Below, in pieces: positions 16,701 to 46,420 of a stretch of 51,031 nucleotides of DNA (its first letter is position 1; each line of letters starts with the position of its first letter). A program made the position numbers and the translations under genes. The notes beneath the pieces are model-generated. The model was not told the origin of the DNA and did not search any database. It was given only the letters and a program-made list of their open reading frames with translations. The DNA comes from Escherichia phage BEK7. The stretch lies in sequence record MN158209.1. One strand, 5' to 3'.

Positions 16701-16745
16701 GCCCGTATAATTCAACAAATCAAATAGCACAAAAGGTGAAAAATA

Positions 16746-19700
16746 ATGGCTGAAAATATGATAACTGGCAGTAAGGGTGGATCATCAAAACCTTATGTGC
16801 CGAAAGAGATGGAAGATAACCTGATCTCAATCAACAAGATCAAAATCCTTCTTGCCGTTTCCGATGGTGAGTGCGATCCAGATTTTACACTTCGCGATCT
16901 GTATCTTGATAATGTTCCGGTAATTGCAGACGACGGAACTGTTAACTACAAGGGTGTGAGCGCAGAGTTTCGCCCAGGGACACAGACTCAAGATTACATC
17001 CAAGGATTTACTGACACATCAAGCGAAGTGACGCTGGCGCGTGATATTACTACGTCAAATCCTTATGTGATTTCCGTAACAAACAAAACATTATCTGCTA
17101 TCAGAATCAAAATGCTAATGCCAACAGGCATTAAGCAAGAGGATAACGGCGATCTTGTCGGCGTTAAGGTTACTTATGCTGTTGATATGGCTGTTGACGG
17201 AGACTCTTACAAAGAAGTATTGCGAGACACTATCGAAGGTAAAACACGTTCAGGTTACGACAGAAGCCGAAGGATTGACCTTCCGGCATTTAATGATCGC
17301 GTATTGCTTAGGGTTAGAAGGGTTACGGCAGACAGCACATCTTCTCGTGTTACTGATTTGATTAAGCTACAAAGTTACGCTGAGGTTATTGATGCAAAAT
17401 TCCGTTATCCTCTGACTGGTCTTGTATACGTTGAATTTGACAGCGAATTGTTCCCAAACCAGATCCCTAACATTTCAATCAAGAAGAAATGGAAGCTGAT
17501 TAATGTTCCTAGCAATTACGATCCGGTAATGCGAGAGTATCACGGTTCATGGGATGGTACGTTCAAGAAAGCGTGGTCGAACAATCCGGCGTGGGTACTT
17601 TATGACATTATCACAAACCAGCGATACGGATTAGATCAGCGAGAGCTTGGTGTACAGGTTGATAAATGGAGTCTTTACGAAGCGGCGCAATACTGCGATC
17701 AGAAAGTTCCTGACGGGAAAGGCGGTACAGAGCCGCGTTATCTATGCGACGTTGTGATTCAAAGCCAGATTGAGGCTTATCAGCTTATTCGTGATATTTG
17801 CTCAATCTTCAGAGGCATGAGCTTTTGGAATGGAGAGAGCTTGTCAATCGTCATTGATAAGCCGCGCGATCCGTCGTACATCTTCACAAATGACAATGTT
17901 GTTGATGGTGATTTTCAGTACACAACAGCAAGTGAAAAGAGCATGTACACGCAGTGCAACGTGACGTTCGATGACGAACAAAACATGTATCAACAGGACG
18001 TAGAGGGTGTATTCGACACAGAGGCCGCATTGCGTTTTGGATACAATCCTACAAGCATAACCGCGATCGGATGTACACGCAGGAGCGAGGCTAATCGGCG
18101 CGGTAGATGGATACTAAAAACCAACTTGCGCAGCACTACGGTAAACTTTGCTACTGGACTGGAAGGCATGATCCCATCAATAGGTGATGTGATTGCTATT
18201 GCTGACAACTTTCACAGCAGCAACCTTAAGTTAAACCTATCAGGGCGCGTGATGGAAGTTTCCGGCTTGCAGGTGTTCGTTCCGTTTAAGATTGACGCGC
18301 GACCAGGTGATTTCATTATCATCAACAAGCCGGACGGAAAGCCAGTTAAGCGCACAATCTCAAAAGTAAGCGTCGACGGAAAAACCATTGAACTAAACAT
18401 TGGGTTTGGGTTTGAAGTTAAACCGGATACAGTTTTTGCAATCGACCGCACTGATATTGCATTGCAGCAATACGTTGTAACGAGTATCGGAAAAGGTGAT
18501 GATGATGATGAATTTACATACTCCATCACGGCTGTTGAATATGACCCGAACAAATACGACGAGATTGATTATGGAGTAAACATTGACGACAGGCCAACGT
18601 CAATTGTCCAGCCTGACACAATGGCAGCACCGGAAAACGTGCAAATATCCTCATACTCGCGAATTGTCCAGGGTGCAAGCGTTGAAACAATGGTTGTGTC
18701 GTGGGATAAAGTACCTTACGCATCGCTGTATGAAATGCAATGGCGAAAAGGTGATGGCAACTGGCTGAATACACCACAGACCGCAAACAAAGAAATTGAG
18801 GTTGAAGGTATTTATTCAGGAAACTACCAGGTAAGGGTTAGATCTGTTTCTGCTTCAGGTTCTACTTCTCCGTGGTCCAGAATTGTGACAGCATCACTGA
18901 CTGGTAAGGTAGGAGAGCCAGGCGCGCCAGTTAACTTAACCGCATCCGACAATGAAGTGTTTGGCATTCGTGTTAAGTGGGGGATGCCAGAAGGGAGCGG
19001 AGACACGGCATACATTGAGCTTCATCAGTCGCCGGATGGAACGGCTGAAAACTCAAGCCTGCTAACGCTGATCCCGTATCCACAATATGAATACTGGCAC
19101 GGTACGCTTCCGGCTGGTCATGTTGTATGGTATCGGATCAGGAGCGTAGACAAGATCGGCAACGTTTCCGGTTGGACTGATTTTGTTAGAGGTATGGCTT
19201 CGGATGATGTTGATTCTGTTATGGGTGATCTTCTTGATAAGATTTTTGATACTGAAGCAGGCCAGGATATTAAAGAGAACGCCATTGATAGTGCAAACAA
19301 GATAAAGGACCAGGCGCAATCAATAATCCAGAATGCTATTGCAAATGATGCAAATCTTAAGTGGACAAGGGTACAAAACGGAAAGCGCAAGGCTGAATAT
19401 GGTCACGCTCTTGAGCTTATCGCCAACGAAACGGAGGCGCGAGTAACTCAAATCGAAGAGTTAAAGGCTTCAATTGATGACGATATAGTTTCAAGTATCA
19501 AAACCGTTCAGGAAGCGATTGCCAACGAATCAGAGACGCGAGCTACTCAAGTTCAGCAGCTTGATTCTAAATTTACGAAGGAAATAGACGGCGTAAAACG
19601 AGATACGGCTGCAAGTATTGGTGAGGTAAGGCAAACAATTGCCAATGAATCAGAAGCGCGCGCCCAGGCAGTTCAGCAGCTTGACGCTAAGTTTACGAAA

Positions 19701-20324
19701 GAGATAAACGACCTTGACGAAGTTATCAAGACCGAAGTCGAGGCTAACATCTCAGAAGTGAAACAGGCGATCGCCAATGAGACAGAGGCAAGGGTTCAGG
19801 CCGACCAGTCTTTAACAGCTAAATTCGGAGACGTTGAATCAGCACTAGCAGAAAAACTTGATTCGTGGGCTAACGTTGATTCTGTTGGCGCTAAGTACGC
19901 TATGAAATTGGGCCTTACTTACAAGGGGCAGAAGTACAGCGCAGGAATGATCATGCAGTTGTCGCAATCTTCTCAAGGCCTGATCTCGCAAATCCTGTTC
20001 GATGCTAACAGGTTCGCGATCATGACTAGCTCTACTGGCGGTACGTTTACATTGCCGTTTGTAGTAGAAAATAACCAGGTGTTTATCAACAGTTTGTTGG
20101 TGAAAAACGGGTCCATTACTAACGCAATGATTGGTAACGTGATTCAGTCAAATAACTTTGTTCAGAATCAGCAAGGATGGAGGCTTGATAAAAATGGTAA
20201 CTTTGAGAACTACGGAACTAGAGCGGGAGAAGGAGCTACAAAATTCACTAACGAAGGCTTAAAGGTGAAAGATGCAAATGGACGATTGAGAGTTGAGATA
20301 GGGAGAATAACCGGAAGTTGGTAA
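16746..20324 (+). CDS. tail tip / host specificity protein (lambda J-like central fibre)
   Basis: 1192 aa, last gene of tail operon; C-terminal tandem approx 40-aa IANE(S/T)EAR repeats. Confidence 0.85.
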   Translation: MAENMITGSKGGSSKPYVPKEMEDNLISINKIKILLAVSDGECDPDFTLRDLYLDNVPVIADDGTVNYKGVSAEFRPGTQTQDYIQGFTDTSSEVTLARDITTSNPYVISVTNKTLSAIRIKMLMPTGIKQEDNGDLVGVKVTYAVDMAVDGDSYKEVLRDTIEGKTRSGYDRSRRIDLPAFNDRVLLRVRRVTADSTSSRVTDLIKLQSYAEVIDAKFRYPLTGLVYVEFDSELFPNQIPNISIKKKWKLINVPSNYDPVMREYHGSWDGTFKKAWSNNPAWVLYDIITNQRYGLDQRELGVQVDKWSLYEAAQYCDQKVPDGKGGTEPRYLCDVVIQSQIEAYQLIRDICSIFRGMSFWNGESLSIVIDKPRDPSYIFTNDNVVDGDFQYTTASEKSMYTQCNVTFDDEQNMYQQDVEGVFDTEAALRFGYNPTSITAIGCTRRSEANRRGRWILKTNLRSTTVNFATGLEGMIPSIGDVIAIADNFHSSNLKLNLSGRVMEVSGLQVFVPFKIDARPGDFIIINKPDGKPVKRTISKVSVDGKTIELNIGFGFEVKPDTVFAIDRTDIALQQYVVTSIGKGDDDDEFTYSITAVEYDPNKYDEIDYGVNIDDRPTSIVQPDTMAAPENVQISSYSRIVQGASVETMVVSWDKVPYASLYEMQWRKGDGNWLNTPQTANKEIEVEGIYSGNYQVRVRSVSASGSTSPWSRIVTASLTGKVGEPGAPVNLTASDNEVFGIRVKWGMPEGSGDTAYIELHQSPDGTAENSSLLTLIPYPQYEYWHGTLPAGHVVWYRIRSVDKIGNVSGWTDFVRGMASDDVDSVMGDLLDKIFDTEAGQDIKENAIDSANKIKDQAQSIIQNAIANDANLKWTRVQNGKRKAEYGHALELIANETEARVTQIEELKASIDDDIVSSIKTVQEAIANESETRATQVQQLDSKFTKEIDGVKRDTAASIGEVRQTIANESEARAQAVQQLDAKFTKEINDLDEVIKTEVEANISEVKQAIANETEARVQADQSLTAKFGDVESALAEKLDSWANVDSVGAKYAMKLGLTYKGQKYSAGMIMQLSQSSQGLISQILFDANRFAIMTSSTGGTFTLPFVVENNQVFINSLLVKNGSITNAMIGNVIQSNNFVQNQQGWRLDKNGNFENYGTRAGEGATKFTNEGLKVKDANGRLRVEIGRITGSW
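19420..19830 (+). repeat. intragenic tandem repeats (approx 120 bp units) in J-like gene
   Basis: Near-identical units ATTGCCAA(C/T)GAATCAGA...GTTCAGCAGCTTGA..CTAA.TTTACGAA visible at about 19510 and 19630, further diverged copies flanking. Confidence 0.7.
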
Positions 20325-20352
20325 AAAAAAGGGGGCATAGCCCCCTTTAATT
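20322..20352. terminator. bidirectional terminator between convergent J-like and Cor-cassette genes
   Basis: A8-GGGGGC-ATAG-CCCCC-TTT; A-run and T-run flank the stem. Confidence 0.65.
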
Positions 20353-20967
20353 TTAATCATAGTGTGATGAATTTATAACCAAAACAGATGAAGCCGTGTA
20401 AATACCAACAGGACCAGAAGTTTGTGCAACCTGCCTAGATAAAGAATATACCCCGTTGCCATACGCGGCAGCTTGAGACTCAAATATCATGAATCCACCT
20501 AAAGACGGATTACTCACAGAGTTTAAAGCTGTTAGTGACGGCATGATGGCGCAAGGGTATCCCAAGTTAACGTCAAAAGTGATCCCGCTTACAGATACAA
20601 GTTTTGCATCTAAAGGCTTCATCTTTCCATGATAAACCATCTCACCATTAGCATTATAAAAAGCTATTCCGTGGCTACCAGGAGGAGTAACCATATTGCT
20701 AAAAGCATAAACAAATACCTCACCTTGATTGTCGGACTTTTCTATCTTTATTGCGTGCTTCCCACCATTATTAAATTGAGTAAATGCTATGTATGATTTT
20801 GATGTTAACCTTACAAAAAAGAAGCACGGTCTATTTATTGGTATAGAAGTATTAAAAACGGTTCCTGTTTTTGCTGATATTTTACCTTTATCTATAAGGT
20901 TAACAGGAGTGAAATCTGGACTTAACCACAATGATCCGTCTGGTTTTTTTATGCTCATCCCGTACAT
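20353..20967 (-). CDS. hypothetical protein (Cor-cassette gene 3)
   Basis: ATG after GGGGG RBS; convergent with J; no motif recognised. Confidence 0.45.
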   Translation of the reverse strand: MYGMSIKKPDGSLWLSPDFTPVNLIDKGKISAKTGTVFNTSIPINRPCFFFVRLTSKSYIAFTQFNNGGKHAIKIEKSDNQGEVFVYAFSNMVTPPGSHGIAFYNANGEMVYHGKMKPLDAKLVSVSGITFDVNLGYPCAIMPSLTALNSVSNPSLGGFMIFESQAAAYGNGVYSLSRQVAQTSGPVGIYTASSVLVINSSHYD

Positions 20968-20969
20968 TA

Positions 20970-21248
20970 TTACCCCCAAAAAGTATATATATATCTTGAG
21001 TCAGATCCAGAAAGTCCGCTCCATGTAACGGTATCACCACTTACACCTAAACTTGGAGCGCCAGGATCTCCTCCGCGCCACGAATTCATTCCAACATATA
21101 TTGCTTTCAACGACTTACCTGGAGGCCTGTTTGAGTAGGTCTTACTGCCAGATGATTGAGTAAATTTATCCAAGAAAAAAACTGGAGTTAAAAGGCCAGT
21201 AACATTTCTACCTTGCTCATCATATATTGCATACCCATATTCAGCCAT
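20970..21248 (-). CDS. hypothetical protein (Cor-cassette gene 2)
   Basis: 92-aa ORF tightly packed between lipoprotein gene and next ORF. Confidence 0.4.
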   Translation of the reverse strand: MAEYGYAIYDEQGRNVTGLLTPVFFLDKFTQSSGSKTYSNRPPGKSLKAIYVGMNSWRGGDPGAPSLGVSGDTVTWSGLSGSDSRYIYTFWG

Positions 21249-21516
21249 TTTTGCACCTCAAATCAATGAATTTTCTTTCATCTTGCCAACGGTTGATAAA
21301 TTTAACTTCTTTATTGTCAACGCTCAACCTGTATTGCTTTTGGCTGAATCTGTTTTCGCGGACCGCATTAATTTTAACTTCATGGAATCCGTTAACAGGG
21401 AATGTTTTAACGTTAAATTTTGCCGTGCAATCGATCTCCTTGAAGTTGCCAGTAGGCGAAGAAGAACATCCGGTCAGGGCGGCTACGGTGGCGATAACTG
21501 CGATTAATTTTTTCAT
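21241..21516 (-). CDS. outer-membrane lipoprotein, Cor-like superinfection exclusion candidate
   Basis: Signal peptide with lipobox LTGC (MKKLIAVIATVAALTGCSSS), about 90 aa, next to tail fibre/tip genes as cor is in T1/phi80-type phages; RBS AGGAG. Confidence 0.55.
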   Translation of the reverse strand: MKKLIAVIATVAALTGCSSSPTGNFKEIDCTAKFNVKTFPVNGFHEVKINAVRENRFSQKQYRLSVDNKEVKFINRWQDERKFIDLRCKNG

Positions 21517-21571
21517 CTTCAATACTCCTTAGTTGTTGTTGGCTGTAACTATACACGATCCGGCAAGCCGA

Positions 21572-21591
21572 GTTTAGCAAAAAGTGCTATT
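21572..21591 (-). promoter_or_regulatory. conserved element upstream of Cor-like lipoprotein gene
   Basis: Minus-strand ATAGCACTTTTTGCTAAAC; TATAGT 21 nt downstream; about 60 nt before ATG at 21516. Confidence 0.45.
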
Positions 21592-21660
21592 TGTTATTTT
21601 TTGTTTTCCGGTGTTATCGGATTTAAGGCGGCGTAAATTTAGCGCAAATCTTAGCCAACA

Positions 21661-21850
21661 TAAGAACAATAAATAATCAATAAAATAGATATATACATAT
21701 AAAATCAATAGTTTATTTATTTATGTATGTATATTTGTTTTTTCTTGTTATCTGTGTTTCTTGTGGTTTTGGTTGTTTGTGGTGATTTTTCTTTCTGAGT
21801 ATCTGTATGTGCCATCATTCATGTGTATGTATATAATCCGGCGTATCTGA
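21661..21850. repeat. AT-rich divergent control region, copy A
   Basis: Low-complexity AT-rich tract with TGTATGTATAT, ATAAAATCAATA, TGTTATCTGT, GGTGATTTT blocks shared with 42950-43145. Confidence 0.6.
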
Positions 21851-21959
21851 TAGAACAAGGGAACAAGAAAAATAACACATATTAATCATTAACTTACGCG
21901 TCAAATTTGTTTTATTGCCATCTGAGAACGTTTAGAAAACAGAAAAAACAAAACAACTA

Positions 21960-21987
21960 TTGACTAAATCAACCAAATGGCTACAAT
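21960..21987 (+). promoter_or_regulatory. sigma70-like promoter (TTGACT-16-TACAAT)
   Basis: -35 TTGACT at 21960-21965, 16-nt spacer, -10 TACAAT at 21982-21987, about 30 nt before ATG 22018. Confidence 0.55.
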
Positions 21988-22017
21988 GCACACACAAAGC
22001 AACGAGGAGCATTAAAG

Positions 22018-23076
22018 ATGAGTGATTTTAACGCCTATACTAGCGAAGAAATGAGCAATGAGCTTTATCATGATCCTAACGCGTGGACGGCTGAATACGT
22101 CAGCGGTTCCAGCCTGGCTGAGATTTACAGCACTTGCCCGGCGTACTGGAAGTACAAGCCTCGCCAGGAAACCAAAGCACTTGTTTTCGGTACGCAGTCG
22201 CATACCAATTTTGAAAGCAAGGAGCTTTTCGAAAAAACCTATCGCCGTGCGCCAGCACCAGAAGACTTTAAGGATCTGATAACCAGCCAAACGGCGCTTG
22301 CTGCAAAGCTAAAATCATTTGGCCTGAAAGGTACAACAGGAAAGACTTACCCTGAACTTATAAAAATGTTGGTTGACTGCGGAGAAGACCTTAACGTCAT
22401 GTGGTTAATCGACATGATCGCAGAAAGTCAGGCGAGGGCCGATGGGGTTCAGTTAATCGAAGCTAAAGATTACGATGCTTGCGTGGCAATGCGACAGGTT
22501 CTGGAATCAATACCGGAACATAACGCATGCATGAATAGCAAGACAGCACAACGTGAATTATCGTTGTTCGGTGAAATTAACGGCGTAAAAGTCAAAGTGC
22601 GATGCGATCACGTTGACGTAACAAAGAACGTCACCGCAACGCTGATTGATGGTTACGATGAAAAAGGTCAGCCGATTTGCCGCGATATTATTTATCCAGA
22701 GGCCATTGTGATCACAGACTACAAAACTACAATGAGCGCGAATCCGGCTGAGTTTATGCGCCTGGCTTACAATCACGGCTATTATCTTAAAATGGCGTTG
22801 CAATGTGATTTATTCAGGAAAGCGTATCCAGAAGAAAAGCGACCTATAGTTGTGCGCCTGTTAGCGCAAGAGAAGAAAGAGCCTTATTTGCCGTTGGCTT
22901 TCCGCATGAACAACGAGCAATTGAAGATTGGGCGCATTCAGTACATGAGCGTGATTAACCAGTTTGCCATGTGCCAGCATCATGACGTTTGGCCTTCGTA
23001 TTCAAACGGTGAGCCGGAGGTTTGCCTTGATACTCCTGATTGGGTGCGACGCCAGTTTAAGCAATATCTTATTTAA
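22018..23076 (+). CDS. putative recombination exonuclease (PD-(D/E)XK-like)
   Basis: 352 aa, first gene of exo-SSAP-SSB arrangement; ITDYKTT resembles a D-x-K nuclease core; assignment tentative. Confidence 0.45.
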   Translation: MSDFNAYTSEEMSNELYHDPNAWTAEYVSGSSLAEIYSTCPAYWKYKPRQETKALVFGTQSHTNFESKELFEKTYRRAPAPEDFKDLITSQTALAAKLKSFGLKGTTGKTYPELIKMLVDCGEDLNVMWLIDMIAESQARADGVQLIEAKDYDACVAMRQVLESIPEHNACMNSKTAQRELSLFGEINGVKVKVRCDHVDVTKNVTATLIDGYDEKGQPICRDIIYPEAIVITDYKTTMSANPAEFMRLAYNHGYYLKMALQCDLFRKAYPEEKRPIVVRLLAQEKKEPYLPLAFRMNNEQLKIGRIQYMSVINQFAMCQHHDVWPSYSNGEPEVCLDTPDWVRRQFKQYLI

Positions 23077-23157: not shown

Positions 23158-23436
23158 ATGGAAAACAAACAAGTTTCAGAGGTAGCAGTTCATATCAATA
23201 ATTTTGCAACTGGCATGGCTATGTTGCTTCGTGACTTTGTAGCGCCCCTTGACCCAACGGCAGGCGCAGAAGAAATGGAGTACATCAGAAAAGTAATGGA
23301 TGCAGTCGATAACGTCGTACTCATTGCAACAATGAGCGAAGACAACGAGGAAGCAATCAAGGCGGTAAAAGAAAGTTCTGATCGCATGATGGAAAATCTG
23401 ATTAAATTACACACCAAAGAAGAAACAAAACATTAA
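23158..23436 (+). CDS. hypothetical acidic protein
   Basis: 92 aa, Glu/Asp-rich; flanked by small hairpins. Confidence 0.4.
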   Translation: MENKQVSEVAVHINNFATGMAMLLRDFVAPLDPTAGAEEMEYIRKVMDAVDNVVLIATMSEDNEEAIKAVKESSDRMMENLIKLHTKEETKH

Positions 23437-24963: not shown

Positions 24964-25175
24964 CAACATGCAGCTCATGCTACCTATTCCGTTAAAATCA
25001 GTCATTGCAGATTTCATTATTGATATTGGAGAATAACCATCATCAGCTATTGTGTGCGCTCTCTCTGACAGGTCTTTAACTACCTGATCAATTCATTCAC
25101 TTTTCGTCATTTTCTTTTCCTTCAGGAATAGATATAAAACATTTGTAAGTGATATGTAAGAAACTGGCATAAAGA

Positions 25176-28811: not shown

Positions 28812-28831
28812 AATAGCATTTTTTGTTAAAC
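28812..28831 (+). promoter_or_regulatory. conserved 21-nt promoter-like element (copy)
   Basis: AATAGCATTTTTTGTTAAAC; TATTAT 21 nt downstream; about 55-75 nt before helicase start. Confidence 0.5.
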
Positions 28832-41791: not shown

Positions 41792-41812
41792 GTTTTAACA
41801 AAAAGTGCTATT
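41792..41812 (-). promoter_or_regulatory. conserved 21-nt promoter-like element (copy)
   Basis: Minus-strand AATAGCACTTTTTGTTAAAAC; TATATT lies in the loop of hairpin GATGCGC...GCGCATC. Confidence 0.5.
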
Positions 41813-45148: not shown

Positions 45149-45169
45149 AATAGCACGAATTGTTAAAAC
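45149..45169 (+). promoter_or_regulatory. conserved element, GAA-variant copy
   Basis: AATAGCACGAATTGTTAAAAC followed by hairpin GGGCCA-TGTATAA-TGGCCC with TATAAT in the loop. Confidence 0.5.
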
Positions 45170-46214: not shown

Positions 46215-46420
46215 TCCTGAATGTAGCATATGCTAACCCTCGCGGCCGCAATATATTCGGCTTTAAGGTTGGCGCGATGGTCAACGCCAGGATAAACGAA
46301 AAAGGCGTATTAGTTGTCAAGTCTCCTAAAACTGGCGTGGATATGCACATCAAGGAGAACGGCGGAAGATTGTTTATCAGGTCAATGTCTGGTCAAACGC
46401 TCGCAACGTTCACCAAATAG
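46211..46420 (+). CDS. hypothetical protein
   Basis: 69-aa ORF; stop TAG inside the next element copy. Confidence 0.35.
   Translation: MILNVAYANPRGRNIFGFKVGAMVNARINEKGVLVVKSPKTGVDMHIKENGGRLFIRSMSGQTLATFTK

Follow-up and report, generated by a model that had tools for sequence, protein, structure and literature searches.

A putative BtuB-type receptor-specificity module convergent with the J-like tail fibre gene of Escherichia phage BEK7

In the Drexlerviridae and Dhillonvirus, the locus directly downstream of gpJ has been described as a [quoted passage not shown] whose alleles track the receptor (PMC8594841; bioRxiv 10.64898/2026.04.02.716166). The Queuovirinae are also counted among the phages with such a locus. 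In the FhuA-type "cor cassette" of T1, N15, HK022, phi80 and Bas05, the genes for a small gp32-like protein (phrog_557) and a larger gp31-like protein (phrog_425) lie directly after J, adjoined by the gene of a small exclusion lipoprotein. In T1 and Bas05 the soluble-protein pair is co-directional with J and cor alone is on the opposite strand; in these phages, as in the Stx phages, the pair belongs to the late tail operon. The LptD-type locus has two genes, for a binding protein and a lipoprotein (bas18_0025 and bas18_0026 in Oekolampad; Rtp44 and Rtp45 in Rtp), and its receptor is not a TonB-dependent transporter; the Oekolampad binding protein contacts its receptor directly in a cryo-EM complex, and Rtp45 binds LptD on the periplasmic side, acting by steric displacement of a loop. 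In T5 (pb5 and Llp) and in the BtuB-dependent T5-like phages phiR2-01, Spc35 and DaisyDussoix, the binding-protein gene is likewise paired with the gene of a small outer-membrane lipoprotein, which blocks the same TonB-dependent transporter that the binding protein uses; Llp, whose termini are tied together by C11-C58, binds the periplasmic face of FhuA (PMC9586334). The short-tailed Stx phage phi24B, whose receptor is BamA, carries the soluble pair (gp55/gp54; VT2-Sakai orf63/orf64) co-directional with its needle gene and followed by lom, with no lipoprotein gene, and JenP2 also has the pair without any lipoprotein.

The window, that is, the whole 51,031-nt stretch analysed (MN158209.1), is a complete Drexlerviridae genome from a T1-like coliphage. 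The features on which the following argument depends are these:

16746-20324, plus strand: J-like gene, 1192 aa, convergent with the cassette
19746-20324, plus strand: tip region at the C-terminus of the J-like central tail fibre, where the ORF2 and ORF3 proteins presumably dock
20328-20348, both strands: bidirectional intrinsic terminator common to the J operon and the cassette
20353-20967, minus strand: ORF3, 204-aa soluble all-beta protein of PHROG 425, putative BtuB-type tail-tip receptor-binding protein
20970-21248, minus strand: ORF2, 92-aa soluble protein of PHROG 557, probable small partner of the receptor-binding protein
21241-21516, minus strand: lipoprotein gene, 91 aa, putative superinfection-exclusion factor
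21548-21553, minus strand: -10-like hexamer TATAGT, 21 nt 3' of the TTGCTA within the repeat, probable -10 of the cassette
21573-21591, minus strand: one copy of a 21-nt repeat with the core AATAGCACTTTTTGCTAAA, preceding the cassette

An earlier note, made from the sequence alone, had proposed a three-gene unit on the minus strand, convergent with the J-like gene, and this layout holds, the unit being linked to that tail-tip gene. The three ORFs are real, tightly packed and conserved, with homologues found for each, and they lie between a single promoter-type element and one terminator, directly downstream of the J-like gene (J stop at 20324, ORF3 stop at 20353). The spacing of 0-3 nt that had been claimed needs correction: the beginning of ORF2 and the end of the lipoprotein gene overlap by 8 nt (ATGGCTGA), and 2 nt separate the ORF2 stop from the ORF3 start, an arrangement compatible with translational coupling at both junctions. 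The terminator is a perfect hairpin with a 9-bp stem containing 6 G-C pairs and a T-run on either strand; it gave the only Rfam match in 20200-22100, at chance level. The cassette is lower in GC content than its flanks, and a search of the AT-rich spacer at 21600-22017 for tandem repeats found nothing notable. As a block of 1.45 kb the locus recurs at 80-100% identity in 68 phage records, and in GenBank MN158211.1 the same three CDSs are all annotated "hypothetical protein".

Set against the known systems, the locus has the same three genes, in the same order and orientation and convergent with J, as the BtuB-type loci of Bas04, JK16, PTXU06 and Zar3M. It shows no structural difference from that of the Bas04 group (87.5% nucleotide identity with FritzSarasin/Bas04; 85-95% protein identity), although relative to Bas04 and JK16 this phage falls in a sub-allele, a group of 97-100% identity. 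Compared with T1 and Bas05, the soluble pair is inverted and placed behind the lipoprotein gene, and the lipoprotein is not of the Cor family. The LptD-type locus differs in having two genes rather than three, the small partner being absent, and in the T5-like phages the binding-protein and lipoprotein genes are divergent whereas here they would be co-transcribed.

Transcription of the cassette most likely starts at a putative promoter made of the 21-nt repeat and the TATAGT -10 element, and would proceed through the lipoprotein gene, ORF2 and ORF3, in that order, to stop at the hairpin common to J. The repeat copy that had been noted ahead of the lipoprotein gene is indeed present, with zero mismatches, its 5' end lying 75 nt ahead of the ATG at which the lipoprotein gene starts. 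The window contains 21 copies of the pattern where 0.7 would be expected, and phage T1 contains 22. We rejected the idea that it is an unpublished element because it has already been described for TLS and T1-like phages; for TLS it was published as aaATAGCACnnnTTGnTAAAA, located ~76 nt upstream of start codons, with its function given as unknown (PMC11447400). When the DNA downstream of all copies is aligned, the repeat is followed after ~21 nt by TATAAT, TATAGT or cATAAT and, 25-40 nt further on, by a start codon with its ribosome-binding site. The repeat forms the conserved upstream portion of the promoter class that this phage commonly uses. Because a sigma-70 consensus scan of the minus strand over 20200-22100 returned no canonical -35/-10 pair, the repeat together with TATAGT is the sole promoter candidate for the cassette. 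T1 cor has no copy of the repeat within 2 mismatches and has instead a sigma-70-like promoter, TTGCAA-17-TACAAT. Co-transcription of a structural gene and an exclusion gene from an early-type promoter, a timing of expression that we infer, is unusual and counts against the explanation that we favour below.

What, then, do the two soluble proteins do? ORF3 (204 aa from ATG; 208 aa from TTG) matches phrog_425 over its full length (E 1e-50 across residues 1-204) and T1 gp31 over columns 2-153 (hhalign E 3.7e-6; ~23% identity), its C-terminal quarter not being alignable with gp31. Table S1 of a recent preprint lists the Warwickvirus BtuB binding protein as the product of the first gene behind J and the FhuA binding protein as that of the second (bioRxiv 10.64898/2026.04.02.716166), the latter being the phrog_425 protein of ~200-230 aa (197 aa in Bas05, 229 aa in T1); ORF3 would then correspond to the preprint's "RBP", a match made through CDS numbering and not through sequence. 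Further support can be found in the predicted fold of ORF3, which matches the proven receptor-binding protein of Oekolampad, and in the layout of the Oekolampad locus, where J on the plus strand is followed, as in this phage, by the binding-protein gene on the minus strand, itself preceded by an exclusion lipoprotein gene on the same strand. The LptD-type binding proteins are longer (309-321 aa) and show no significant sequence similarity to ORF3 (hhalign E 0.26 for the Oekolampad protein), so that apart from a faint phrog_1265 match (E 0.0085) the link to Oekolampad is structural; the pb5-type binding proteins (~585-640 aa) are unrelated to ORF3. The closest relatives outside the siphoviruses are those of phi24B, at 52% identity for the small and 46% for the large protein. 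The large one, gp54, also has 204 aa, has been detected in the virion, has been matched to additional density at the tip of the needle and is proposed to be the binding protein there; within it, the regions corresponding to residues 51-80 and 141-200 are only 10-30% identical to ORF3. Published AF-Multimer models place the "hand-like" phrog_425 protein on the spike tip, touching all three chains. Pfam and NCBIfam gave no match for ORF2 or ORF3, and profile searches of PDB sequences found no relatives of any of the three cassette families. We conclude that ORF3 is very probably the receptor-binding protein, and the PHROG 425 label "membrane associated protein" is a mislabel.

Could the J tip itself bind the receptor, leaving ORF2 and ORF3 as chaperones or adaptors of the lambda Tfa or T4 gp38 type that make no contact with BtuB? 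Several points favour this: TolC-, LamB- and NupG-specific phages use GpJ domains directly, the preprint models flag the GpJ C-terminal tip as specificity-associated (bioRxiv 10.64898/2026.04.02.716166), and "structural or chaperone-like roles" are among the options named by Matusiak et al. The J-like protein of this phage has Pfam matches to Phage_Tail_Tip (residues 1034-1163), FNIII-A_GpJ and Phage-tail_3, and its C-terminus is 25% identical to that of the Stx-phage needle (E 6e-7); the C-termini of J, T1 J and the needle all end ...NGRLRVEIGRI/L. However, the J tip is 63% identical to that of T1, which is FhuA-dependent, a degree of conservation too high for it to determine the receptor; ORF3 and T1 gp31, by contrast, have diverged to the low identity given above. 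With, in addition, a structural homologue of ORF3 binding its receptor directly in Oekolampad and a sequence homologue present in the phi24B virion, we regard receptor binding by J alone as quite unlikely and retain ORF3 as the receptor-binding protein. By analogy with the published AF-Multimer models of homologues, the ORF2 and ORF3 proteins would dock on the J tip.

ORF2 matches phrog_557 (E 6e-21) and is 93% identical to bas04_0024. In T1, Bas05, VT2-Sakai, JenP2 and Zar3M the phrog_557 gene is always directly upstream of the phrog_425 gene, and there are natural fusion proteins of 309-323 aa in which an N-terminal phrog_557 part is joined to a C-terminal phrog_425 part (hhalign 92% and 99.5%). 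[quoted passage not shown] On balance we lean towards ORF2 being a virion-associated partner or adaptor; as the small partner of ORF3 it would either sit between the J tip and ORF3 or aid ORF3 assembly. The PHROG 557 label "outer membrane protein", like that of PHROG 425, is a mislabel. We also considered whether ORF3 is a tandem duplication of an ORF2-like domain, and rejected the idea: hhalign found only a 15-residue motif (YGYAIYDEQGRNV in comparison with HGIAFYNANGEMV) at a probability of 5%, and BLASTP found nothing. We keep this as a shared motif only and not as homology.

A different role for the pair had been suggested in the earlier note, in which the two downstream ORFs were unknowns that could be additional exclusion factors, receptor-modifying factors or tail-fibre accessory proteins. 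In the first two cases they would act with the lipoprotein in the envelope of the infected cell, in keeping with the presumed co-transcription of the three genes in this phage and with speculation in the KanT1 paper on a superinfection-exclusion link for the T1 homologues. Against this, signal peptide, lipobox and membrane segment are all absent from both proteins (maximum 19-residue hydropathy 0.59 for ORF2 and 1.23 for ORF3), and published estimates of membrane affinity are low. Moreover, the pairs of T1, Bas05 and the Stx phages are co-oriented with the genes of the late tail operon and apart from cor, the JenP2 pair has no lipoprotein to act with, one homologue is in a virion proteome, and the fold of ORF3 is that of a proven receptor-binding protein. 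An envelope role is thus highly improbable. The third suggestion, tail-fibre accessory proteins, came closest but is an understatement, the 204-aa protein being most likely the receptor-binding protein itself, and the genes are not unknowns: they form the receptor-specificity locus following gpJ that is already in the literature.

The first gene of the unit encodes, as had been noted, a lipoprotein of about 90 aa with the lipobox LTGC: 91 aa from an ATG behind an AAGGAG ribosome-binding site, or 93 aa from an upstream TTG. Its signal peptide, MKKLIAVIATVAALTG, ends directly before the lipid-attached Cys and is followed by Ser at +2; the mature part of ~75 aa has a small beta fold and two invariant Cys (C14 and C72 of 75), placed as in Llp and Cor. 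With a signal peptide, a lipobox, no inner-membrane retention signal and a length within the 55-75 aa of such mature proteins, it has the properties of a small outer-membrane lipoprotein. The rule by which lipoproteins are sorted to the outer membrane is well established and, because the +2 residue is not Asp, this protein, once exported and lipidated, would be directed to the inner leaflet of that membrane.

Is it a Cor protein? The designation "Cor-type" is apt in so far as position, size, lipid anchor and cysteine pattern are those of a superinfection-exclusion lipoprotein, but not as a statement of family. The NCBIfam Cor model NF047972 scores it at 18.6 bits against a cut-off of 31 (T1 Cor: 55.8). 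The full-length protein matches phrog_1119 (Cor) with E 6e-8 and 34 bits (T1 Cor: 105 bits); its mature part alone does not match that PHROG at E<=1. The BLASTP alignment with T1 Cor is limited to residues 1-34, hhalign of mature parts only is non-significant against T1 and Bas05 Cor (E 0.015, probability 3%) and against Llp (E 0.19), and a sub-threshold lipid-attachment motif is the sole Pfam match. The likeness to Cor is therefore confined to signal peptide and lipobox. A remote homology to the BtuB-blocking lipoproteins of T5-like phages was rejected on similar grounds, since the full-length hhalign probability of 88.7% gave way to E 0.07 without signal peptides. The mature parts of the Cor, Llp and T5-like families are also mutually without significant similarity. 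Among viral models, the structures closest to that modelled for the lipoprotein belong to T5-like phage lipoproteins, including the "receptor-blocking protein" of phiR2-01, and with these the lipoprotein shares a lipid Cys, a second Cys 9-14 residues later and a third near the C-terminus; in Rtp45 the cysteines are arranged differently. In position and architecture the lipoprotein is analogous to Llp, Cor and Rtp45, but it does not belong to the Cor family.

By that analogy, the lipoprotein is probably the cognate exclusion factor for the phage's own receptor. Its gene is in the same transcription unit as ORF3, with similar neighbourhoods in Oekolampad, T5 and phiR2-01, and it is found only alongside the BtuB-type group of ORF3 (83 records, compared with 277 for ORF2 and 392 for ORF3). 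An alternative is that it does not block the receptor and either acts after adsorption, for instance on DcrB or SdaC, entry factors of the periplasm or inner membrane that BtuB-type phages need, or has an unrelated envelope role. It is in line with this that the Bas04 and Bas06 screens returned sdaC and dcrB along with btuB, and that neither the sequence nor the structure of the lipoprotein matches Llp or Cor significantly. We nevertheless consider it unlikely: in every studied version of the locus the lipoprotein beside the binding-protein gene blocks the receptor (Llp for FhuA, Rtp45 for LptD), and the distribution of this lipoprotein tracks the BtuB-type binding protein and not the phage backbone.

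A major question is which receptor this phage uses. Genetic evidence shows that Bas04 and JK16 need btuB, the gene of the vitamin-B12 transporter BtuB. Because these phages, with cassettes 85-95% identical to the present one, depend on BtuB, we hold with good confidence that BtuB is also the receptor here, and exclusion of FhuA-dependent phages would not be expected, since the relatives use BtuB and not FhuA. ORF3 is 85% identical in the close relatives JLBYU01 and SECphi27, and the lipoprotein is 94% identical in JK16 and tonnikala and 93-95% identical across the BtuB group. Beyond these relatives, the same cassette is found in Tempevirinae and Dhillonvirus, and those carriers that have been tested use BtuB. 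In the Dhillonvirus Zar3M the cassette has 54-58% protein identity, and PTXU06, which appears to be the BtuB-dependent phage published as PTX06, has at the same coordinates an ORF2 homologue that is 71% identical. Allele and receptor go hand in hand, and the locus spreads horizontally from one phage lineage to another. Binding of BtuB by ORF3 would follow from this correlation and from published AlphaFold3 models of BtuB complexes, with ipTM values of 0.43-0.82 (0.47 for Bas04).

A change of receptor within the sub-allele also has to be weighed, in which the module would function as described but the 97-100% group (vB_EcoS-95, JLBYU07, JLBYU10, JLBYU26, tonijn and this phage) would not use BtuB but another receptor. 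ORF3 and its counterparts in receptor-tested phages share only 85-86% identity, and the ~14% of positions at which ORF3 differs from the Bas04/JK16 group are concentrated in residues 21-80. For the other phages of the group, the published receptor information is solely "not FhuA", as for JLBYU07, JLBYU10 and JLBYU26, three phages independent of FhuA whose cassettes are 99% identical to this one in nucleotide sequence. However, the far more distant Dhillonvirus cassettes of Zar3M, PTXU06 and K25 are those of reported or predicted BtuB users and, as a change of receptor would be expected to entail divergence of the cognate exclusion factor, the identity of the lipoprotein to the BtuB group (93-95%) also argues against it. 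We judge such a change improbable, and it is quite likely that the cassette as a whole is a receptor-specificity module in its BtuB-associated allele, comprising binding protein, partner and cognate exclusion lipoprotein.

If BtuB is the receptor, the module could function as follows. A single ORF3 molecule would cap the tip of the trimeric J fibre, anchored through the conserved strands at its N- and C-termini, and its variable regions (approximately residues 51-80 and 141-195) would enter the extracellular face of BtuB, leading to irreversible adsorption. In the infected cell the lipoprotein, its two ends presumably tied together by a Cys-Cys bridge, would attach to BtuB from the periplasmic side and hold the transporter in a conformation closed to the binding protein. 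Such locking would shield the infected cell from superinfection and keep progeny from adsorbing to debris.

The cassette is a known kind of module, described for close relatives, for which this genome is unannotated. For a T1-like phage, the locus sets both the outer-membrane protein that is used and the receptor that is shut after infection, and it therefore offers a basis for host-range prediction from sequence and for giving phages new targets through module swaps. The three "hypothetical proteins" can be re-annotated, putatively, as receptor-binding protein of the BtuB type, partner protein and cognate exclusion lipoprotein. The labels "outer membrane protein", "membrane associated protein" and "Cor" that databases offer are misleading. 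The additions made here are small: a fold link between the BtuB/FhuA-type and LptD-type proteins, the fusions of small and large protein, and the inverted, self-contained three-gene operon. From these one may tentatively go further, to a proposal in which our belief falls slightly short of even: that the allele is a portable operon of binding protein, partner and exclusion lipoprotein with its own terminator and a promoter of the general, non-late class, from which the tip protein would be made ahead of other tail parts, and that the BtuB-, FhuA-, BamA- and LptD-specific tip proteins are one ancient fold family docking on J via shared terminal strands, with the small partner as a detachable N-terminal domain. 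Were this so, a single recombination event could move both the receptor used and the receptor shut between unrelated siphophages. The tip proteins specific for these four receptors have recently been called unrelated families.

The three minus-strand genes that follow the gene for the J-like central tail fibre protein (J; 16746-20324, plus strand) form one unit, as the earlier note had proposed: the ORFs overlap or abut, are convergent with J, have a copy of the 21-nt repeat upstream and end at a hairpin.

Features of the cassette (window positions)
21573-21591: copy of the 21-nt repeat, zero mismatches
21548-21553: probable -10 hexamer of the cassette, TATAGT
21241-21516, minus strand: lipoprotein gene, 91 aa from ATG
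20970-21248, minus strand: ORF2, 92 aa
20353-20967, minus strand: ORF3, 204 aa from ATG
20328-20348, both strands: perfect bidirectional hairpin, end of the cassette unit

Each of the three starts has a ribosome-binding site. The spacing of 0-3 nt proposed previously needs correction: ORF3 starts 2 nt beyond the ORF2 stop, and the ORF2 start and the lipoprotein stop overlap by 8 nt. J itself encodes 1192 aa (Pfam Phage_Tail_Tip, FNIII-A_GpJ and Phage-tail_3), and the GC content of the cassette is lower than that of its flanks. The 1.45-kb region is 100% identical to Escherichia phage BEK1-23 (MN158211.1; Drexlerviridae, Tempevirinae), in whose GenBank record all three ORFs are labeled hypothetical protein; the window and that record are one genome with different circular permutations.

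We consider it likely that the cassette is a receptor-specificity module of the BtuB type, in which a receptor-binding protein and its small partner are combined with an exclusion lipoprotein. It is a real, ordinary finding, in that the module has already been described for close relatives and is here simply unannotated. In Drexlerviridae, Dhillonvirus and Queuovirinae the locus directly after gpJ carries “bona fide RBP” alleles, which match the terminal receptor, and cognate superinfection-exclusion genes (Maffei et al., 2021, PMC8594841), and genome-wide screens have confirmed it as a receptor-specificity locus (bioRxiv 10.64898/2026.04.02.716166). FritzSarasin/Bas04, whose receptor is BtuB, shares this cassette, layout included, at 87.5% nucleotide identity; ORF2 and bas04_0024 are 93% identical, and in close relatives identity is 85% for ORF3 and 94% for the lipoprotein. 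JK16, with the same allele as Bas04, also scores as BtuB-dependent in the same preprint. The cassette recurs at ~99% nucleotide identity in JLBYU07, JLBYU10 and JLBYU26, all reported not to be FhuA-dependent, and an ORF2 homolog (71% identity) is found in PTXU06, apparently the same phage as the BtuB-dependent PTX06. It is quite likely, then, that BtuB is the receptor of this phage. The Dhillonvirus Zar3M has the whole three-gene cassette, convergent with J, at 54-58% protein identity, and such Dhillonvirus copies, together with the allele-receptor match and the lower GC content than the flanks, are consistent with a module that moves horizontally and is associated with BtuB. In the preprint's screens of Bas04 and Bas06, two phages with this cassette type, sdaC and dcrB come up along with btuB. 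The part of its supplementary table that was covered lists tonB for FhuA-type Bas03 and not for Bas04/Bas06, which suggests that BtuB-type phages cross the periplasm and inner membrane by a route of their own. A coliphage-type cassette with 53-73% protein identity also occurs in the unannotated “Campylobacter phage A143/A113” records (MG065649.1, MG065680.1; 49.9 kb), whose host label may be wrong because both resemble T1-like enterobacterial phages.

ORF3, a member of phrog_425 (E 1e-50), is very likely the receptor-binding protein of the phage. It has no Pfam family and no sequence relative in the PDB. Its AlphaFold2 model (19 sequences) is all-beta with a pLDDT of 89.8 and a pTM of 0.84, scores being low only in the first 20 residues, and its structural counterpart, the binding protein of Oekolampad (Bas18), binds its receptor directly. 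Sequence alone does not show that relation (hhalign E 0.26), with ORF3 matching phrog_1265, the family of the Oekolampad protein, only faintly (E 0.0085). Three short motifs are common to the two proteins: an N-terminal G-x-x-hydrophobic-x-x-x-D/N-G, an internal “GIAFYNxxGEMV”-like stretch and a C-terminal one that finishes with Y or YD. Homology to T1 gp31 covers the first three quarters of ORF3 (columns 2-153, E 3.7e-6); its last quarter cannot be aligned with that protein. Against Stx-phage homologs identity is 46% overall, with 55-75% in residues 1-30 and 81-150 and only 10-30% in residues 51-80 and 141-200, the profile that would be expected of conserved docking surfaces and variable receptor-contacting regions. 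A preprint on phi24B, a close relative of Stx phages whose homologs are 46% identical to ORF3, reports the 204-aa gp54 in the virion proteome and proposes that gp54 and gp55 together account for additional density at the tip of the needle. Both protein families have been modeled as a tail-spike cap, with the “hand-like” large protein in contact with each of the three chains of the spike (Matusiak et al., 2025, PMC12309495). In the table of bioRxiv 10.64898/2026.04.02.716166, J is distinguishable from the binding protein in dual-receptor phages: J is CDS_0024 in both Bas01 and CPL00221, with the LptD binder of Bas01 as CDS_0025 and the FhuA binder of CPL00221 as CDS_0026. The Warwickvirus entries give CDS_0022 as BtuB binder and CDS_0023 as FhuA binder. 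From these CDS numbers and the gene orders seen in Bas04 and Bas05, we infer that the gene directly following J, the ORF3 homolog, encodes the BtuB binder.

ORF2 matches phrog_557 (E 6e-21) and has weak, collinear homology to T1 gp32. In every genome examined (T1, VT2-Sakai, Bas05, JenP2, Zar3M) a gene of its family lies directly upstream of the phrog_425 gene. Among 1.84 billion representative proteins, a profile search recovered just 126 ORF3 relatives. Several are 309-323 aa long, with a phrog_557-like N-terminal domain (hhalign 92%, E 6.5e-7; PHROG E 4e-8 and 9e-6) and a phrog_425-like C-terminal part (99.5%, E 3.5e-23). These fused small-plus-large tail-tip proteins come from uncultured phages (search hits P0080, P0082, P0091, P0107 and P0126) and argue for joint action of the two types of protein in a fixed order. 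ORF2 may well be a virion-associated partner or adaptor of ORF3. The suggestion that the two are additional exclusion factors did not hold up: neither has a signal peptide or hydrophobic segment, and gp54, a homolog of ORF3, is reported in the virion. Two further hits, P0096 and P0113, have an ORF3-like N-terminal part, a long W/Y/P/G/K-rich insertion, which may be a different receptor-binding insert, and a conserved C-terminal “IKCxxYDxYF”.

The layout of these genes varies. The small and large genes come after J, or after the needle gene, and share its strand in T1, Bas05 and VT2-Sakai. T1 and Bas05 have cor by itself on the other strand, in T1 with a sigma-70-like promoter of its own; VT2-Sakai has no such lipoprotein gene and has lom after the pair. 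This phage shares with Bas04 and Zar3M an inverted pair that sits behind the lipoprotein gene. In JenP2 the pair is inverted without a lipoprotein, and Oekolampad has a two-gene version of the same inverted layout, J on the plus strand and, on the minus strand, an exclusion lipoprotein gene followed by the gene for the binding protein. The C-terminus of J, which is 63% identical to that of T1 and recognizably akin to the tip of the Stx needle, is consistent with a shared docking platform. Immediately ahead of the tail-tip domain, J contains two 78-nt direct repeats (19513-19710, plus strand; 120 nt apart, 77% identical) encoding coiled-coil units IANESE(T/A)RA..VQQLD.KFTKEI.

The lipoprotein begins MKKLIAVIATVAALTG|CSSS, a lipoprotein signal peptide with lipobox LTGC and Ser at +2. 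Judged by sequence it is not a member of the Cor family, because its similarity to Cor is that of the signal peptide (in BLASTP against T1 Cor residues 1-34 alone align), the mature part has no match to the Cor PHROG, and the NCBIfam Cor model scores it at 18.6 bits against a cut-off of 31 (T1 Cor, 55.8); the “Cor” label given previously must be dropped. The viral structure models closest to it are those of T5-like phage lipoproteins, the phiR2-01 “receptor-blocking protein” among them. A promising full-length score against T5-like lipoproteins reflected the signal peptide, and when the mature part alone was compared by profile with Cor, with T5 Llp and with the lipoproteins of T5-like phages that depend on BtuB, no score was significant. 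The broader idea of an exclusion-type lipoprotein stands by analogy: an outer-membrane lipid anchor carries a 75-residue mature beta-rich domain with invariant Cys close to both ends of the mature chain, a pattern seen in Llp (C11-C58) and Cor, and the gene adjoins that of the binding protein. The lipoprotein is found in 83 phage records, versus 277 for ORF2 and 392 for ORF3, and follows the BtuB-type ORF3 group rather than the wider ORF2/ORF3 spread. By comparison with Llp, which acts on FhuA (PMC9586334), and Rtp45, which acts on LptD, it is probably the cognate exclusion factor for the receptor of this phage, and most likely would bind the periplasmic face of BtuB, preventing its engagement by the binding protein.

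A consensus promoter scan of 20200-22100 found no minus-strand promoter, which leaves the repeat plus TATAGT as the candidate promoter of the cassette. The 21-nt repeat pattern has 21 copies in the genome (0.7 expected) and 22 in T1; examples lie at 28812, 31795, 32836, 38620, 39765, 41794, 42667, 44100, 45149, 46416, 47719 and 49058. When the DNA downstream of all copies is aligned, the repeat is followed by ~21 nt, a good -10 hexamer, 25-40 nt, a ribosome-binding site and a start codon. TTGNTA within the repeat lies ~21 nt from the -10 rather than 17, too distant for a canonical -35. The repeat is already published, for TLS and other T1-like phages, as a 21-nt direct repeat that lies ~76 nt upstream of start codons (PMC11447400). 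Almost all strong copies in the window are ahead of non-structural genes (21.5-49 kb), and therefore the cassette appears to use the general promoter class of the phage, not the late tail operon. Many copies have an inverted repeat downstream that brackets or contains the -10 hexamer (GGGCCATgtataATGGCCC at 45149, GGGCTTgctgtatagtAAGCCC at 46416 and GATGCGC...GCGCATC at 41794), a hairpin of which we found no mention in the TLS account (PMC11447400). A degenerate copy, AATAGCACAAAAGGTGAAA (16723-16741, plus strand), lies immediately before the start codon of J and overlaps the ribosome-binding site of that gene, an arrangement conserved in T1 (25020-25038, plus strand). A repeat abutting the start of J cannot be a promoter 75 nt upstream of the gene, a hint that it may bind a regulator.

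The divergent spacer that separates the cassette from the exonuclease gene (21600-21900) is very AT-rich (27-29% GC) and includes both a TATA-rich stretch and a tract rich in T and G, ttgtggttttggttgtttgtggtgatttt. It could serve in regulation or in replication; the spacer at this place in T1 is similarly odd, with repeated CTGTTACAC motifs. Beyond it, a 92-aa acidic ORF (23158-23436, plus strand) bears the GenBank name “tail length tape-measure protein,” which looks like an annotation error because the ORF is flanked by the genes for the exonuclease and the Erf recombinase.
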